A stretch of DNA of 64,000 nt from a candidate division WOR-3 bacterium (GCA_039803205.1 JBDRYB010000003.1:32001-96000), one strand, 5' to 3'; shown: positions 30,001-36,000, counted from the stretch's first letter. Numbers: made by a program.

Positions 30001-33000
30001 TGGATTATGGAGTTGCCAATTTCCTGTACGCCTGTCGTTGTTTTTGCCCAGGAAAGGTTTCCAAGAGAGTTTGTCCTGATAACCATAAGTCTTGGTATAT
30101 CCGCGAGATCAGGATCCGTCGCACCGGTTATGGCAAATCCACCATCCGAGGTTGGGACTACGGATAGGCCCACATCAAATATTGAATGATTTCCGTCAAC
30201 CATACCGTAGAAGGCTTTTGCTCTTCCTACGGATCCATCGGGGTTCAATACCAGTAACAGGGTGGCATTCTCTAAGGTAAAATCAATGTATTCCCCGGTA
30301 AAAACATAGCCGTCATCGTATGTCTGGGTCATGAATACATCCTGGGCCCGTGTATTGTATGACTTAGCCCAGCTTTCGTTTCCGGCCGCGGTAAGCTTGA
30401 GAAGCAGTATATTGGAATTATCAGACCCTCCTACTGCGTATCCCCCGACCCCTGGGGTCTCAATTACGGACCTGGCTTCTTCCCAACCCGAGGTTCCAAA
30501 GGTCTTCGCCCATGAAATATTTCCATCCTGATCCAGCCTCAGTACGAGCATATCTCTTGAACCAGCGCCGAAACTCTCTGTGTAACCAGCTATAACAAAG
30601 CCTCCGTCATCTGTGCATATCACAGACCAAGCGCCGTCATTATTTGCTCCTCCGTATGCCTTGGCCCATTGGATATTTTTGCCATCCGAGGTTAACACAA
30701 CGAGTAAAGCATCCGTGCCTCCGGCACCATAACTATTCGTTGTTCCCGCCAACGCAAAACCTCCACTGCCAGGCATCCGTGCCACGGAGTAGATGTATTC
30801 ATCACCCGTTGTCCAACCATAAGTTTTAGCAAATAGCGTCAAGGCCACAAGCACATCCATCATTATAAAGAGCCCTGTCATGTTAAAGCCTCCGTATGGT
30901 TTTTGTTTTCAAAGCAAATGCAGGCCGGCCGGGTTTTAACGGGAGGTGCAGAGATCCCCGGCCGGCCCTTTGTTTTCATCTTACCACTGCCTTTCCTTTA
31001 TATGGCCCCGCTTGCCACAGATAGACGCCGGGATCAAGGGGGATGCGGGTTTGGCCCTTCTTGAGCTCCCCGGAGTAAGCGAGACGGCCATCGGCTCCGT
31101 ATATCCTTAAATCAATATCTTCCCATAGGCTAAAAAGAAGGCCTCCGGAAACAAGAGAACAGGTTATCCTGTCTTTCAACACTGCGGCCTCGTTTTCTCG
31201 TGCGTCAAGGGGGGCACAGAGATCTGTCACAATGAGTGTGGGCGCAGTTATTACTGGGCTTGCAGCTCCCATGGACGGGATATAATTCACTCCCACAGAA
31301 CGGGAAGAAGTGTTCGGAGACCAGGCATTGATAGAGGGCGAACAAGAGCTCACACATCCAGGATAATCCCCATTACCGTCCACCTTTAGGAGGAGAAATC
31401 CTTGATCAACATACCCCATAATAGCAAGATCCCCATCCTGGGTTGGAATTATGCAATTAGCGCCATCATCGCTTGATGTCCCAAAGGTTCTGGCTCCCAA
31501 AAGGTTTCCAGAAGCATCCAGCTTGACAACGAAGAAATCCTCACCACCTATACCAAAACTCTTCGTACCTCCAGCGATCACGAGATCGCCATCCTGAGTC
31601 TGCATTATAGATCTCCCGTCATCGTCGTTCACGCCACCTATGGTTTTGGCCCAAGAAAGAGAACCATCCGAAGCTAGTTTGAGCACGAAGAGATCATGCC
31701 CTCCAACACCGGAGCTCTGTGTATGTCCTGTGATTACAAAGCCGCCGTCAAAGGTCTGGATTATAGCTGTGGGACAACCTGGCTCTTCATCGCTTGAACC
31801 CCCAAAGGTCCTAGCCCATATGGGAGAACCATTTGAGTTCAACCTGAGTATAAGTAAATCACTGCCGCCCACGGTAAAACTTCTTGTCCATCCTGCGACC
31901 GCAAAACCGCCATCTGTTGTTTGAACTATGGAGTGGGCTATGTCTTGATTTGTTCCCCCATAGGTCCAGGCCCACATAAAGTTCCCATTCGCATCCGTCT
32001 TGAGCACAAAGAAATCGTAACTCCCAGCGCCGGAACTGGAAGTGAATCCAGCCACCACAAGACCGTTGTCCGCAGTTAAGACTGCAGAGTGAGCCTGATC
32101 ATATCCGTCTCCGCCGAAGGTCTTATACCACTGAAGGTCGCCGCTGGAATTAAACTTGGAAATAAAGAGGTTCTCATCTCCAAAGCTATATGTCTCGCCC
32201 ACGATCGCGAACCCGTTGTCACTGGTCTGAACTATGCAGTGACTGTGATCGAATCTGGTCCCTTGTATTACCTGGGCCCAAGTTATGTTTCCGGATGGGT
32301 TCATTTTGAACACTAGGCAATCCGTACCATCTCCAAGCCCAAGATCAATCGGTCTCGTAACCAAGTAGCCACCATCAGTGGTTTGGATGACAGAGCCTGC
32401 GTAGTATTCAATGCCCGTCATGTCTTCTACAGACCTAGCGAACTTACCCTGCGCCAAGAGCGCGCTTGTGGTGATAAAAAAGCATGTCATGATGAAACCT
32501 CCGTATGGTTTTTGTTTTCAAGGCAAATGTGGGCCGGCCGGGTTTTAACGGGAGGTGCAGAGATTCCCGACCGGCCCTTGGTTTTCATCTCACAACCGCC
32601 TTTCCTTTATATGGCCCTGCCTGCCATAGATAGACGCCAGAATCAAGGGGGATGCGGGTCTGACCTTTTTCCAGGTTATCTGAGATGGCCACGCGGCCAT
32701 CGGCCGAGTAGAGCTTTATGGGCAGGGCCTCGTTGGATACGAAGAGAACACCACCGGTGACCGGCGAACAGGTTATCCAGCCATGAGAGCCAGGATTGAT
32801 CTCCTCAACATGCTCGTAAAGGGGCTGGCAGACATCGGTTACTGTCGGCGCGGAAGCCGTAGTGATGAAATCCAGGTTTGTGGTGGTATGAGTCCAAGCG
32901 GGAGCAGAGATACTGAGATCTGGCGTCAGAAAATCGGGGGTCCCCAGGGGCGGCACCTGATCAACTACACAGTCGGAATAATCCCCGTTTCCGTCCATCT

Positions 33001-36000
33001 TCAGAAAAGCAATATCATGCTCTCCGACGGGAATGTTGAATGTGTTTCCCGCGACCGCGAACCCCCCGTCCGGTGTCAGAATTATGGACTGGGCGTGGTC
33101 ATCAACAGTCGCGTTGAAAGTCCTGGACCACAGGACGCCACCGGTTACATTGTCCATTTTCATGATCAGGAAATCATTGTTCATGGTTCTTGTGTGCCCT
33201 GCGGCCACGAGTCCCCCGTCCGAGGTCTGGACTATGGATGTGGCGTAATCGTGTATGCCTGTCGCTACCGTTGCCCAGGAGAGATCACCGTCGGAATCTG
33301 TTTTCATGACCATAAACATCGGCAGATCCCCCACGAAATTGCCTACTTCCGTTATGCCAGCGACCGTAAAACCCCCATCAGAGGTCTGGATTATGAAGTT
33401 GCCCTGATCAGCCCAGGTGTGAAGTCCGCCAACCATCCCAAAAAAGAACCTCGTCCAGAGGACAGACCCATCCGGATTCAGCCTAAGGATAGGGATGGCA
33501 TTATCGCTGTATATCGCGTCTTCATAGATCACCCCCGTGATAGCATATCCGCCATCGCTTGTTTGAACTATGGAATAGGCCTCTCCTAACCATCCCGGCC
33601 CATAATAATATCTTGCCCAGTTCGTATTTCCATCAGCGTCAAGCCTGAGGGCAATCAGGTTATTACCCCATGCCCCTATGGCATAGCCTCCGTCCGTGGT
33701 TCTGATTATGGAGCGCCCCTCCTCGTAGGTCGCTCCTGCTCCATAGGTCTTTGCCCAGGATAGGTCTCCGTCAGGTTCCAGCTTGAGAACCAATATGTTC
33801 CTTCTTGGGCCAGCATAACGCGTGGTGCCTCCGGTGACGACAAACCCGCCATCTGTCGCCTGGACTATGGAATATCCCACATCAACGCTTGTGTCGCCGT
33901 ATGCCTTGGCCCACACGAGGTTCCCGTTCGGATCCAGCCTGATGACCAAGACATCATCTCCACCAGCGCCAAACGCCTGCGTGGTTCCGGCGAGCGCGAA
34001 CCCGCCGTCCGTGGTCTGGACCACGGAGTAGATGTAGTCATCGCCTGTCCATCCATAGGTCTTCGCGAAAAGGTTCTGCGAGACCAGCACAGATACTATT
34101 AAGGTGTTCATGTTAAAGCCTCCGTATGGTTTTTGTTTTCAAACAAAATGCAGGCCGGCCGGGTTTTAACGGGAGGTGCAGAGATCCCCGGCCGGCCCTT
34201 TGTTTTCATCTCACAACCGCCTTTCCTTTATATGGTCCCGCTTGCCAGAGATAGACGCCAGGATCAAGGGGGATGCGGGTTTGGCTAGGTCCTAGGAGTC
34301 CGGAGAAAAATAACCTGCCATCAGGGAGATATAGTCTAAGGAGGCTCTCTTTTTCGGAGGCAAAGATTAGCCCACCGGATACAGGAATACAAGTTATCCC
34401 TCCGGGGTGGTTATACGGATCATCTTGATAGTAATCCATCGGGGAGCATATACTTAAGGTGCTTAGACTAACAGAAGTCATAGAGGGTGCTATCGTGACG
34501 ACATATGGTGTGTATGACTTTCCTGTGTTAACATTCTCATCTACGACAGGTATATTTGTGAGGGTAGCCTGTTGCCAGTCCATAATACAGCCCGCGTAAT
34601 CCTGACTCGCATTTACCTTTAGTACGAGCAGGTCGTAGCTAGAGGCATAGCTATTAGAGTATCCCAGAACAGCAAATCCTCCGTCGTCGGTTATAGATAT
34701 ACTCAAGGATATGTCCGAGTTTGCCCCACCAAGCTTTTTGACCCATAGGAGGTTGCCGCCGCCGTCGATCTTAATTATGAAGATGTCATCGCTAAGACCC
34801 GAGAAAGAGCCAGTTACTATAAGATTGTCACCGTCTACACTAGTAGACCCATACACATTGGTAGCAGAGAGATATTTTGCCCAGATGGGGTCACCCACGG
34901 CATTCGTTCTAAGTATAACCACATAAGGGCTTCCGGTATTCATCTCGCCGGTAAATATGTATCCCCCATCCGGCATCTGAGCTATATCCACCACGCCCTC
35001 TTGGTATGAGCCAAAATCATAAGTTTTTATCCATTCGGTAGCGCCAGATGAGCTAAGCTTAACCACGAAGAAGTTCCAGGGGTTCGAACCGAAATATCTC
35101 GTATATCCTCCGAGGATATAACCCCCGTCGCTTGTTTGCCTTATTCTCCATAGTCCATCGTGATTGCTTGATCCGAAGGCCCGAGCCCATTCTATATTGC
35201 TGTTTTGATCCGGCTTGTAGATAGCTCCATCCCAGCATCCGTAGCCCCAATCATCGGACCACACAGAACCGCCATCGCTGGTAAGGATAAGCGAGTTGCC
35301 GTTGCTTCCGCCCGTTGGCCCGAATACCTTTTTGCTCCATATGTGGTTCCCGGAAAGATCGTAACGGAAAAGCCAAGCATCCCATGTGCTCGTTGAAGTG
35401 TTCCAGAGATAACCGGCCGCTGTAAGATTTCCGTCAGAGGTTTGCACGATCCCCCTCACATAGTCCGCGCCAGCCGCGCCAAGAACCCTTGTCCAGATTT
35501 GATTTCCTGAGGCGTCAAACCTGGAGATCATTGCGTCGCCGTTTCCGACGCCCCAGCTATCGGTTCTGCATCCTACCACAAAGCCATCGTCTGATGTCCG
35601 AGTTACATTTGGAAAGATGTAGTCATCGTTTGGGCCCCCTATTGTTCTGTTCCAGAGCAGATTACCAGATTTGTCAAACCTGCAGATGAGGGTTTCCCAG
35701 CCTCCCGCACCTACTCCGGTTATACTACCGACAGCAACTACCCCGCTATCGGGTGTTGCTGCTATTCCGCGTCCTTCAGCTGCTTGGCCCGATAGGCCTA
35801 TACATCTCGTCCATTGATGGTTCCCTGCCGAGTCAAGCTTTACAACTATAAGGCTACTGAAGGTACTGGGACCAAAGCTCCACGAGCTCCCGACTATAGC
35901 AAAGCCATTATCGGCGGTTTTGATAATGCCACCCGCTTCATCAGCGTTAGTGCCTCCAATTGTTTTTGCCCAAAGAAGATTCCCGTTGGGATCAAGCTTG

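Follow-up and report, generated by a model that had tools for sequence, protein, structure and literature searches.

This hot-spring bacterium of candidate division WOR-3 has a family of 33 structured RNA hairpins that lie, with few exceptions, behind the stop codons of paralogous genes for secreted beta-propeller proteins and are read in sense orientation to the gene upstream. Their stems of 10–15 G+C-rich pairs drift in sequence by paired changes, and their loops (12–32 nt, roughly 20) present a conserved single-stranded core of 10–12 nt, G-CACCUCC-CG(UU). The CACCUCC of this core is identical to a 7-mer in the organism's own 16S rRNA 3' end, which reads GGATCACCTCCTTT, and the conserved core extends beyond the rRNA match. 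The stem starts at a median of 7 nt past the stop codon as compared with 22 nt for the ordinary small-loop terminators of the genome, and this spacing is a new point. We propose, with a probability of about 40%, that the hairpin is a stop-codon-coupled 3'-end structure or attenuator whose loop may pair with Shine-Dalgarno (SD) sequences generally.

Hairpin copies in the window

Three copies lie on the minus strand of the window, the whole 64-kb stretch of DNA analyzed here. Copies 1 (30922..30968), 2 (32531..32577) and 3 (34152..34198) scored 64.7, 66 and 64.7 bits with our covariance model R1, and each has a 12-bp G+C stem and a 23-nt loop. The loop motif GCACCTCCC is matched exactly at 30941..30949, 32550..32558 and 34171..34179; these are its 3 occurrences in the window, all on the minus strand. 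The stem of copy 2 has a U-G pair at a position where copies 1 and 3 show C-G. The arrangement is the same each time: stop codon of a propeller gene, 7 nt, hairpin, 40 nt, next ATG. Copy 3 separates the stop of a 707-aa propeller family gene (34206..36329, minus) from the ATG of a 508-aa DUF5122/delta-60-repeat propeller gene (32585..34111, minus), whose own stop precedes copy 2. Copy 2 is followed by the ATG of a 504-aa propeller gene (30976..32490, minus), and copy 1 lies between the stop of the latter and the ATG of the last gene of the tandem run (508 aa; 29355..30881, minus), behind which no family hairpin was found. The A-rich 40-nt leader from hairpin 1 to the next ATG (30882..30921, minus) contains the SD GGAGG at 30889-30893. 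Equivalent leaders are at 32491-32530 and 34112-34151, and these window leaders leave no room for a -10 box before the ATG. Upstream of the first gene of the array, which is of FG-GAP type (36347..37945, minus), stand a -10 box of sequence TAAAAT, the SD ACGGAGGTGCAG and a direct repeat.

A fourth, partly decayed member is on the plus strand (26193..26244; 28.2 bits with R1). Its 15 stem positions comprise 14 Watson-Crick pairs and one A-C mismatch, and its loop has CACCTCC at 26216-26222 with altered flanks. The ATG of propeller gene 26282-27820 follows after 37 nt. No intact same-strand gene was found upstream of this copy, where a remnant of ~67-87 nt is homologous to the 3' ends of family genes.

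Family size and association with propeller genes

The genome-wide survey's note had reported 30 hairpins with CACCTCC loops, 27 of them downstream of a gene; our analysis confirmed the family and counted 33 members. An upstream gene was called for 31 of these by our own crude ORF caller. Twenty-eight of the 31 belong to F1, an expanded family of ~102 beta-propeller paralogues with T9SS-type tails, and 30 carry the family C-terminal tail domain. The concern that the 7-mer appeared invariant by the selection of sites was allayed by a motif-blind scan (stem of at least 9 bp, loop of 10-32 nt, <30% coding), as CACCTCC still ranked first among loop 7-mers, occurring in 25 loops of 532 hairpin-strands. 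By the motif-blind count, a large-loop hairpin stands behind the stop in 32/102 F1 genes; exact CACCTCC is present in 24 of these 32 and a near variant in 4, compared with CACCTCC in 1/162 large-loop hairpins behind non-F1 genes. The reported link to cargo genes was likewise upheld. Within 80 nt 3' of the stop, CACCTCC was found in 28/195 cargo genes and 14/1811 others (odds ratio 21.5, p 1e-19), and GCACCTCCC in 23/195 and 1/1811, these counts being of copies related by descent and not of independent events. The reverse complement GGAGGTG was not enriched in the same region (3/195 cargo genes vs 25/1811 others).

The label "T9SS cargo" given earlier to these genes is direct for part of the set only: 12/31 hairpin genes exceed the TIGR04183 cut-off and 15/31 match at E<=0.01, while for the rest the assignment is not direct. 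Among the window genes, 32585..34111 scored 16.4 bits (E 0.0068), below the cut-off of 23, and the other two hairpin genes had no TIGR04183 match at E<=1.

The covariance model produced 9 and 5 hits in the genomes of the other two species in the genus. Eleven of these 14 hits start 6-8 nt past the stop codon of a reading frame that has a family-type tail. The model found no member of the family in 97 and 149 genomes from elsewhere in the phylum, nor was there a match to it in Rfam. The note's view of an undescribed structured RNA agrees with its absence from Rfam, and the proposed restriction to the genus holds among the genomes searched. Tandem double hairpins occur at two G001 loci only.

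Conservation of stem and loop

In eight copies of the same geometry the stems are 100% paired, with 8/12 pairs changed on both sides, and 0/500 shuffles gave covariation as high. G-U combinations outnumber A-C combinations in the stems (37 vs 12 positions, p 5e-4), an excess indicating selection as sense-strand RNA, and every copy is sense to its upstream gene. The hairpins are predicted to remain folded at 70 °C, where their median energy is -14.1 kcal/mol and 30/33 copies leave the motif unpaired. In the loop, positions -1 to +8 carry 1.2-2.0 bits of information and position +9 carries 0.76, while most other positions scored 0.07-0.6 bits, near random. The flanking bases, G(-1), C(+7) and G(+8), are each conserved in 38/46. 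The placement of the motif in the loop is variable, with a 5' spacer of 4-13 nt and a 3' spacer of 0-6 nt. Some single-base variants are of the C-to-U type (CACUUCC, CACCUCU and CAUCUCC), so that wobble pairing with G would remain. The rest are not of this type: UACCUCC, two instances of CGCCUCC, and a single CACCCUCC copy that differs from the core at two positions.

On a tree of 95 paralogues (FastTree, 40/92 forks unresolved), genes with the hairpin are scattered, and its presence requires 22 changes compared with a shuffled mean of 24.4. The tree is deep: its terminal branches have a median of 0.84, and the median pairwise identity of F1 proteins is 32%. This scatter over a deep gene tree argues that the loop is under selection. 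The hairpin family is old relative to the F1 expansion, and selection keeps it in about one third of the copies.

Position relative to the stop codon and terminator-like features

The stem starts within 12 nt of the stop in 24/31 hairpins but in only 8/76 ordinary terminators, the loops of which are 3-6 nt long in 65/76. A T-run of at least 4 follows 20/33 hairpins and is missing from 13/33. In 8/33 the neighbor is convergent, its median distance being 6.5 nt, and several of these hairpins have an A-run on the near side and a T-run on the far side. A same-strand downstream gene is present in 25/33 (median 41 nt), and a same-strand start lies 15-130 nt downstream of 18/33 copies. Within tandem arrays the next ATG is just 27-47 nt away; no -10 box was found in the 40-nt junctions, and array-first genes have clear TATAAT promoters. 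At two junctions on contig C38, C38:4058 and C38:6051, a promoter lies between the hairpin and the next gene.

The hairpins resemble intrinsic terminators in having a G+C-rich stem directly after the gene, in many cases with a T-run, and their stem cores are like those of the genome's ordinary ones, GCCCCGGC. The A-run/T-run symmetry at convergent gene pairs is reminiscent of bidirectional terminators. They differ from both in their large loop of conserved sequence and in their proximity to the stop, and many copies are inside arrays. A loop of ~20 nt is atypical for an efficient intrinsic terminator, which counts against the terminator part of our proposal.

Predicted pairing of the loop with SD sequences

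The note had read the loop as a mimic of the anti-SD sequence that acts on the same or the next cargo mRNA. Two of its premises were borne out, namely the 7-mer common to the loop and the organism's 16S 3' end, and stronger ribosome-binding sites in cargo genes (GGAGG in 52% vs 26% of non-cargo genes). SD strength did not differ between F1 genes with and without the hairpin. The claim of specificity in cis could not be sustained: mean loop-leader duplex energies were -11.2 kcal/mol for the next gene and -11.15 for the gene's own leader, while F1 leaders taken at random gave -10.95 and leaders outside F1 gave -9.9. At ~-11 kcal/mol, loop-SD duplexes are as strong as those of the 16S tail with the SD (~-10.5). 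The 16S rRNA has U, U and U where the loops keep G(-1), C(+7) and G(+8), and the F1 SD context, A-A/C-GGAGG-U-U/G-U, is not complementary to the conserved loop flanks, since its position -1 is G in 11% and its position -2 is C in 8%. Since the flanks match neither the 16S rRNA nor the SD context, the predicted duplex is limited to 6-7 bp. Such a duplex is predicted to be no better than the ribosome's own pairing and would be weak at hot-spring temperature. The complement of the core, CGGGAGGTGC, is enriched nowhere (142 sites with at most one mismatch outside hairpins vs 261 for the reversed word), 4 of the 142 sites are at ribosome-binding sites, and no extended pairing target for the loop core was found in the genome. 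Moreover, the loop is kept in the 8/33 copies that have no downstream cistron, and a role confined to cis therefore cannot apply to the whole family. Judged from sequence, the anti-SD interpretation is partly supported. It is supported in that the hairpin is structured, selected, linked to cargo genes and carries the 7-mer, and it is weakened by the lack of partner specificity and by the flanks.

Alternative explanations

It is conceivable, though on the whole unlikely, that the loop is instead a protein-binding site. A sequence-specific single-strand RNA binder, such as a KH-type protein, antiterminator, RNase or factor normally handling the 16S 3' end, would read G-CACCUCC-CG and so control how cargo mRNAs are terminated, processed or stabilized; in that case the loop would resemble the anti-SD only incidentally or would be a decoy. 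The core exceeds the rRNA match, its flanks fit no SD context or genomic target, the variable position of the motif suits linear single-strand recognition, and no Hfq was found in the genome. The KH domain of Era is known to bind GAUCA and CCUCC beside a helix, its site at the 16S 3' end being GAUCACCUCC after helix 45, with CACCUCC single-stranded next to the helix as it is here (PMC10582724). Our hairpins do not reproduce the Era determinant, as Y-Y-G takes the place of G-A-U at positions -3 to -1 and one of the two adenines read by Era is absent. No candidate binder is linked to the arrays, and the seven-base identity to the anti-SD would have to be due to chance, the odds of which we roughly estimate at 1 in 1000. 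We consider it decidedly unlikely that the hairpin is a mere terminator or stabilizer carried along with duplicating genes, with a functionless loop conserved through shared descent and gene conversion between junctions. Nearly all copies do follow one gene family, the homology usually takes in the last 70-90 nt of coding sequence, the hairpin class tracks two main clades and tail types, and TAG is the stop codon of 0/31 hairpin genes vs 25/74. The three junctions of the window are 84-90% identical over 176-275 nt while the proteins are ~44% identical, and this difference indicates gene conversion. Yet stems and other loop positions have diverged to near randomness and the 10-mer has not; the motif is kept in three species whose best-matching genes are ~70-80% identical in DNA; some pairs have just the hairpin in common (94% over 49 nt); and a 20-nt loop evolving neutrally should have shrunk or drifted, given the small loops of 65/76 ordinary terminators.

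The anti-SD reading could also be confined to cis, as a translational coupling device at tandem junctions, in which the loop masks the next SD through a pseudoknot-like contact and the SD is released only when a ribosome terminating 7 nt upstream disrupts the hairpin. The geometry of stop, 7 nt, hairpin, ~27-nt A-rich linker and SD would fit, as would the nearby same-strand start in 18/33 copies and the conservation of the leader across species. This is improbable, since the loop is kept in the 8/33 copies with a convergent neighbor, a promoter intervenes at C38:4058 and C38:6051, pairing with the next leader is no better than with random family leaders, and the loop-SD duplex would survive melting of the stem. 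Least probable by far is an element acting as DNA, either a REP/MITE-like mobile palindrome or a recombination site driving cargo duplication. A G+C-rich palindrome in many copies, homogenized junctions and one Y1 transposase gene in the genome could be taken to suggest it. Against it, stem sequences are not conserved, orientation strictly follows the gene strand with the G-U bias of 37 to 12, and there is no dispersal behind unrelated genes (1/162). The Y1 gene, on contig C13, adjoins no copy, and the genome's true mobile repeats are different, being identical copies at contig ends.

Comparison with known systems

RsaE and RNAIII are sRNAs with C-rich loops that bind SD regions, as LhrC reportedly does. 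Another such sRNA, 6C, acts without RNA chaperones (PMC6486639), which parallels the failure to find Hfq here, and SdsR, RseX and ArrS are described as regulating through the terminator loop (PMC11979758). The exposed C-rich loop, at times that of the terminator hairpin itself, is a likeness to our hairpins and carries regulatory activity there; those sRNAs are free-standing genes with their own promoters and defined targets, whereas here the loop is in the tail of ~30 mRNAs.

The note's suggestion that an anti-SD-loop hairpin would be novel in kind has precedents against it in the CcsR/cuckoo RNAs (PMC4615179, PMC8034643) and icaR (PMC3868564). The CcsR/cuckoo RNAs of Alphaproteobacteria (RSs0680, NfeR, Rfam ar14 group) are multi-copy hairpin modules of 24-50 nt with 9-27 nt loops; as in the present family, the anti-SD-like loop motif is the sole conserved sequence and compensatory changes dominate the stems. 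In Rhodobacter they are cut out of an mRNA 3' UTR. They differ in their loop motif, CCUCCUCCC rather than G-CACCUCC-CG, in having 2-4 adjacent hairpins per RNA where we find one per gene, and in being linked to a DUF1127 gene, no such gene having been found here; nor are they described as lying 7 nt behind the stops of a large family of secreted-protein paralogues. With the difference in phylum and the lack of an Rfam match, the resemblance is one of analogy, not homology. In the icaR mRNA of Staphylococcus aureus, a C-rich 3'-UTR motif, UCCCCUG, is complementary to the SD and blocks initiation (PMC3868564). That case concerns a single gene with a long 3' UTR, pairing specific to its own SD and cleavage by RNase III, whereas here ~33 short hairpins show no own-gene specificity and the pairing is predicted only.

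Proposed role of the hairpin family

We infer that the hairpin forms the 3'-end structure of each cistron. With a U-run, at convergent ends and some junctions, it would be an intrinsic terminator of a leaky or bidirectional sort. In tandem arrays, where the next ATG is so close that there is no room for a promoter, it would be an intercistronic attenuator and a barrier to 3'-exonucleases. With a spacing of 7 nt, a terminating ribosome would have the hairpin just at the mouth of its mRNA channel, such that its folding, and hence termination or read-through, would be coupled to translation of the upstream gene. Least certain is the role of the loop. Exposed and C-rich, it may pair with GGAGG(U/G) SDs generally and with no single partner, acting in cis on the next cistron or, as part of a stable hairpin fragment, in trans. 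Cargo mRNAs, which depend strongly on their SDs, might have their translation damped in this way, as with the CcsR/cuckoo RNAs, LhrC, 6C and the icaR 3' UTR. The family is an undescribed RNA element, of a kind met in other bacteria.

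Hairpin copies and gene junctions in the window

Three hairpins lie on the minus strand of the window, at 30922-30968, 32531-32577 and 34152-34198, each with a 12-bp G+C stem and a 23-nt loop that reads GAUCUCU-GCACCUCCCG-UUAAAA. Their intergenic regions are nearly identical. A gene encoding about 505-707 aa stops 7 nt before each stem, and the ATG of the next gene comes 40 nt after the hairpin. The word GCACCTCCC occurs exactly three times in the window, all in these three hairpins. A fourth copy, partly decayed, is found on the plus strand at 26193-26244, 37 nt before the ATG of another family gene, and BLASTN identified the remnant of a family gene 3' end upstream of it. 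The genes flanking the window hairpins encode DUF5122 / delta-60-repeat beta-propeller proteins. A search of the window against Rfam gave zero matches.

The similarity extends beyond the hairpins. Junction cassettes at 30795-31108, 32474-32704 and 34067-34338 (minus strand) are mutually 84-90% identical over 176-275 nt. A cassette takes in 85-127 nt from the end of a coding sequence, then the hairpin and the 40-nt leader, and in part the start of the next gene. The proteins at the three junctions share only about 44% identity and belong to distant parts of the family tree, so this comparison points to exchange between junctions by gene conversion or unequal crossing-over. The leaders (30882-30921, 32491-32530 and 34112-34151, minus strand) are A-rich and contain a Shine-Dalgarno (SD) sequence. 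Across paralogues, the leader after junction-type hairpins is kept as (T-rich)-TTGAAAACAAAAACCATA(C/T)GGAGG, in which the SD is preceded by A-rich sequence without structure. The genus has two other genomes here, G001 and G002; this leader is complete at locus L077 (G002 contig C91), while at L074 (G001 contig C340) its A-rich part alone is present, with SD and start not found within 70 nt.

Census of the hairpins and their upstream genes

The genome under study, G000, comprises 2.32 Mb in 50 contigs, on which a simple codon-score ORF picker called 2006 genes. A scan blind to the motif (stem of at least 9 bp, loop of 10-32 nt) returned 532 mostly non-coding hairpin-strands. The commonest loop 7-mer among them was CACCTCC, in 25 loops, and 6- to 8-mers overlapping it took the top ranks. 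The motif is thus not an artefact of selection by the 7-mer, a caveat that the genome-wide survey's note had attached to its own sites. The hairpin family that it described is real and has 33 members in our stem-based census; a replicate of the survey's filter gave 19 sites.

The upstream genes belong largely to F1, an expanded family of beta-propeller paralogues with T9SS-type C-terminal tails. F1 has 102 members by a BLAST criterion, with a median pairwise identity of 32%, and accounts for roughly 5% of the called genes of this 2.3-Mb genome. It is expanded across the genus: one member used as query gave 92, 52 and 53 match segments in the three genomes, compared to 0-12 segments in 38 genomes drawn from the class outside this genus. 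The tail model TIGR04183 matched 12 of 31 hairpin genes above its cut-off and 15 of 31 at E ≤ 0.01; against the three hairpin genes of the window it gave 16.4 bits (below cut-off) once and no match twice. The remaining hairpin genes were counted as cargo genes (genes with such tails) only through a tail HMM built from the hairpin genes' own tails, which makes the assignment partly circular. A SprA-like translocon protein is present in G000 (396.6 bits, above cut-off), and PorV-like proteins score below cut-off.

Within 80 nt past the stop codon, CACCTCC follows 28 of 195 cargo genes and 14 of 1811 others (odds ratio 21.5, p 1e-19). The longer word GCACCTCCC follows 23 of 195 and 1 of 1811, respectively, and the association reported earlier is therefore upheld for both words. 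The reverse complement of CACCTCC is not enriched in the same interval (3/195 versus 25/1811). By motif-blind criteria, 32 of the 102 F1 genes carry a large-loop hairpin after the stop, 24 with the exact heptamer and 4 with a one-off variant; among large-loop hairpins behind other, non-cargo genes, 1 of 162 contains it.

Two side observations concern other sites in G000. An exact GCACCTCCCG lies at C1:419700-419709, just past rather than inside an ordinary terminator hairpin, behind a non-family gene (C1:418665-419660, 331 aa). Two other large-loop hairpin families, with about 13-17 copies each, occur mostly at contig ends (for example C2:44-103, C7:11-70 and C8:72435-72494 for one, and C11:1-53, C12:78-134 and C37:205-261 for the other). 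Their stems and loops are identical from copy to copy, unlike the varied stems of the family studied here, and they are probably the termini of multi-copy insertion sequences that break the assembly.

Structure, strand and the conserved loop word

All 33 copies have G+C-rich stems of 10-15 bp. Eight copies of the same geometry align without gaps; 84 of 84 cells are paired and 8 of 12 pairs have changed on both sides, which no shuffle or slid register approached, so that the stem covariation claimed by the survey holds. The 45 distinct stems of the three genomes contain 548 Watson-Crick, 37 G-U and 12 A-C positions. That G-U outnumbers A-C (p 5e-4) shows that the helix is selected as RNA, on the sense strand of the gene, and all copies are in the sense orientation to the upstream gene. 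A search for sequencing runs with this DNA gave five metagenomic DNA runs, labelled as hot spring, and no RNA run. Folded in silico at 70 °C, the hairpins keep their structure (median -14.1 kcal/mol), and 30 of 33 leave the motif unpaired. We consider it near-certain that these elements form a selected family of sense-strand RNA hairpins.

Base frequencies in 46 distinct loops, anchored on the 7-mer, show conserved flanks: G at -1 (38/46), C at +7 (38/46), G at +8 (38/46) and U at +9 (33/46). Positions -5 to -2 are pyrimidine-rich and G-poor, and most other scored positions are near random (0.07-0.6 bits). The conserved flanks imply that the selected word is G-CACCUCC-CG(UU). That a non-coding 10-mer is fixed while stems, other loop positions and proteins diverge shows purifying selection. 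The 16S rRNA of this organism ends in GGAUCACCUCCUUU. The loop had been described as a copy of this end; the heptamer alone is shared, and at the three conserved flank positions loop and rRNA have different bases. Within the loop the word has no set place, with a 5' spacer of 4-13 nt and a 3' spacer of 0-6 nt, which fits linear single-stranded display better than a fixed three-dimensional motif. A mini-stem of G(-1)-C(+7) and Y(-2)-G(+8) closing a 7-nt CACCUCC loop is pairable in 37 of 45 and 34 of 45 loops, no better than in shuffles; its predicted pair probability is about 0.03, and neither covariation nor thermodynamics supports it.

Distance from the stop codon and relation to terminators

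A same-strand gene ends upstream of 31 copies, at most 12 nt away in 24 and 16-63 nt away in the other 7, and the stem starts at a median of 7 nt past the stop codon. The 76 ordinary small-loop terminators of G000 start at a median of 22 nt, with 8 of 76 within 12 nt. In a ribosome, the entrance of the mRNA channel is where a structure 6-8 nt past the A-site codon comes to lie. With a stem spacing of 7 nt, the folding of the hairpin and the termination of translation should thus influence each other.

The loops measure 12-32 nt, typically 19-24 nt, and are not short as in intrinsic terminators; those of the 76 ordinary terminators measure 3-9 nt, mostly 4 nt. A simple terminator scan is blind to the family hairpins because of its loop limit of 8 nt. 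A T-run of at least four follows 20 of 33 hairpins, and 18 of 33 have at least 5 T in 8 nt; the three window copies have broken T-tracts only. Eight of the 33 copies separate two convergent genes, the second of which is a median of 6.5 nt away, and several of these copies have an A-run before and a T-run after the stem, as in bidirectional terminators. For 25 of 33, a same-strand gene, mostly a family member, lies downstream at a median of 41 nt.

Clear TATAAT boxes precede the array-first family genes, whereas the 40-nt junctions hold only an A-rich leader and an SD. The downstream gene at such junctions must therefore be read by transcription through the hairpin; at two junctions on contig C38 a promoter does follow the hairpin. 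In array-first genes the TATAAT-like -10 box comes after a tandem direct repeat. Its units of 7-9 nt recur about every 10-11 nt, and their sequence differs from promoter to promoter in many family promoters genome-wide. The example in the window, GTTTCAGTT-CT-GTTTCAGTT, lies at about 37946-38020 on the minus strand, upstream of the gene at 36347-37945. Taken together, the hairpin is probably a leaky terminator, or an intercistronic 3'-end structure coupled to the terminating ribosome.

The stop codons of the 31 hairpin genes are TGA in 17 and TAA in 14. TAG ends none of them and 25 of 74 family genes without a hairpin (Fisher p 7e-5), a comparison that includes the window genes at 30976-32490, 32585-34111 and 34206-36329. 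One hairpin gene of G001 ends in TAG. A 3' module common to these genes (...AGA TGA/TAA), and not a release-factor rule, may account for the absence of TAG.

Distribution and history

A covariance model of the family, R1, was built from the eight aligned copies and recovers 24 true members and no false ones in G000. Of the two further genomes of the genus, one yields 9 copies with this model and the other 5. In these relatives, 11 of 14 hairpins follow an ORF with a family-type tail, all 11 at 6-8 nt past the stop, and two more are the second of a tandem pair behind a first. Tandem hairpins occur in G001 only, at L066 (contig C202) and L070/L084 (contig C380). The members of a pair are about 35 nt apart and both carry the loop motif; the first stem is of junction type and the second, GCCCCGGCCGG, is of terminator type and is followed by a T-run.

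Restriction to the genus was borne out: R1 gave one weak match (E 0.059) among 98 other genomes of the class, and in a second, overlapping sample of 151 genomes of the phylum it matched only G000 and one genus relative. When the 3' flanks of family homologues in other genera were inspected by eye, 0 of 12 readable flanks had the motif in a hairpin. The pattern CCGG-gap-GCACCTCCCG-gap-CCGG matched at least 120 metagenome stretches, with any stem of at least 8 bp in 18 of 80 loci inspected. These 18 looked like chance G+C-rich matches and did not usefully extend the family; R1 gave one match on the inspected loci (L150, E 0.008). Plain 10-mer counts in the relatives were uninformative, as control words were equally frequent.

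On a FastTree phylogeny of 95 family proteins, hairpin presence required 22 changes; shuffles averaged 24.4, and 72 of 500 reached a value as low. We take these figures as qualitative, since the tree leaves 40 of 92 forks open and the copies do not count as independent events. Terminal branches of the F1 tree have a median of 0.84 changes per site, and the scattered presence on such a deep tree means that the hairpin is not the mark of one young clade. It is either as old as the family with frequent loss, or has been exchanged between copies, and probably both. Descent is indicated by stem class and C-terminal tail type, both of which sort with the two main clades. Some junction pairs share the hairpin alone (94% over 49 nt), which together with the junction identity indicates conversion, or else convergence on the usual terminator stem of the genome, GCCCCGGC.

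Possible functions of the loop

The loop had been proposed to mimic the anti-SD and to pair with the SD of its own or the next cargo mRNA. Generic pairing with SDs is plausible, while the cis-specific form is disfavoured. In favour of pairing, seven bases are identical to the anti-SD and displayed unpaired, and the loop duplex energies equal those of the rRNA tail. Three single-base variants of the motif are C-to-U changes that keep wobble pairing; the other variants are not C-to-U. Cargo SDs are strong, as had been noted, with GGAGG in 52% compared to 26% in other genes. Against the anti-SD reading, SDs are equally strong whether or not an F1 gene is followed by a hairpin, and the loop is retained where no cistron lies downstream. 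Loops show no preference for the leader of the next or own gene over random family leaders (-11.2 and -11.15 kcal/mol, respectively, versus -10.95). The icaR 3' UTR is described as pairing with its own SD in the source passage (PMC3868564); here the loop holds a 5-7-nt complement to GGAGG(UG), and own-gene leaders pair no better than random ones. The conserved flanks do not match the SD context of F1, A-A/C-GGAGG-U-U/G-U. Outside the hairpins, the complement of the 10-mer is not enriched genome-wide (142 sites, versus 261 for the reversed word), and with only 4 of the 142 at ribosome-binding sites we found no extended RNA target. Any binding of the loop to SDs would be generic and span 6-7 bp, leaving the flanks to be fixed by something else. 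We assign a probability of about 0.4 to the loop working by generic SD pairing. A protein reader is the obvious alternative for the conservation of the flanks, and a protein site is in our estimate rather unlikely; Hfq was not found in G000. One such reader might be Era, whose 16S rRNA site is given in the cited excerpt as GAUCA, with two adenines read by GxxG, then CCUCC (PMC10582724). The loop shares the CA-CCUCC part alone and has Y-Y-G instead of G-A-U at -3 to -1, and we rejected an Era site or decoy on this basis.

Other readings of the whole element were rejected or are unlikely. Recoding or read-through of the stop was rejected, as the motif occurs in every frame counted from the stop (12/9/10) and extensions in frame show no relation to one another. 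Nor is the hairpin a SECIS element, since the stops here are TGA, TAA and, in G001, TAG. The opposite strand reads GGAGGTG and could serve an antisense small ORF, yet no conserved start codon follows it. A promoter in the loop for the next gene is at odds with the motif being kept at convergent ends, and by inspection no -35/-10 pair fits. The layout of gene plus 3' palindrome recalls an integron attC site, which is unlikely given that the genes are paralogous and that conservation falls on the loop instead of the outer core sites. Repeated palindromes mobilized by a RAYT (REP/BIME) are very unlikely because the stems vary, the motif is in a single one of the 162 large-loop hairpins behind non-cargo genes, and the only Y1_Tnp gene (contig C13) has no copy nearby.

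Comparison with known RNAs

The closest analogue is the CcsR/cuckoo group, described in the cited passages as multi-copy hairpin modules with 9-27-nt loops in which an anti-SD-like CCUCCUCCC is the sole conserved sequence and the stems are full of compensatory changes, and which in Rhodobacter are processed from a 3' UTR (PMC4615179, PMC8034643). The likeness lies in the variable, compensated stems and the conserved loop. The consensus here, G-CACCUCC-CG, has CCUCC alone in common with CCUCCUCCC; G000 has a single hairpin per gene instead of 2-4 adjacent hairpins per RNA; and the phylum is different. DUF1127 (PF06568), the CIN1 context of CcsR/cuckoo, has no match in G000, which is 95.9% complete. 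No Rfam family reached its gathering score, and at E ≤ 1 only PtaRNA1 (0.39) and SorX (0.13) appeared, far below their cut-offs and attributable to chance. Since motif, hairpin number, DUF1127, Rfam and phylum all fail to agree, the present hairpins are an independent family of a known kind. Regulatory activity in terminator loops has been noted for some E. coli sRNAs, in the passage cited (PMC11979758). Searches of literature outside subscription journals gave no related description for this lineage. The unusual traits are the attachment to about 30 paralogous secreted-protein genes and the position 7 nt past stop codons.

Implications

The observation of the survey is thus confirmed and extended, and its interpretation is plausible but unproven. 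We consider an extension to family-wide cross-talk quite improbable: each of the roughly 100 privately regulated cassettes, once switched on, would leave a heat-stable hairpin that displays the anti-SD heptamer. All other cargo mRNAs have strong SDs that such decoys might titrate; or else the decoys might tie up a factor whose normal role is to hold the 16S 3' end. A cassette that is expressed would in this way damp the rest, and cargo synthesis would be matched to secretion capacity, with the fixed 7-nt distance from the stop tying decoy production to translation of the upstream gene.

The 47 copies from three species, whose stems vary while the loop and the 7-nt stop distance are fixed, also make a clean natural data set on how a terminating ribosome meets a terminator hairpin. 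Should the loop prove to be a site for a protein, or to be without effect, what is left is an unusual family of terminators in a single genus. If it acts on SDs, a whole family of secreted-protein genes, about 5% of the genes, would have a riboregulator built into its terminator, and the case would come from an uncultured thermophile lineage outside the Proteobacteria, Firmicutes and Actinobacteria in which RNAs with anti-SD loops have been studied.
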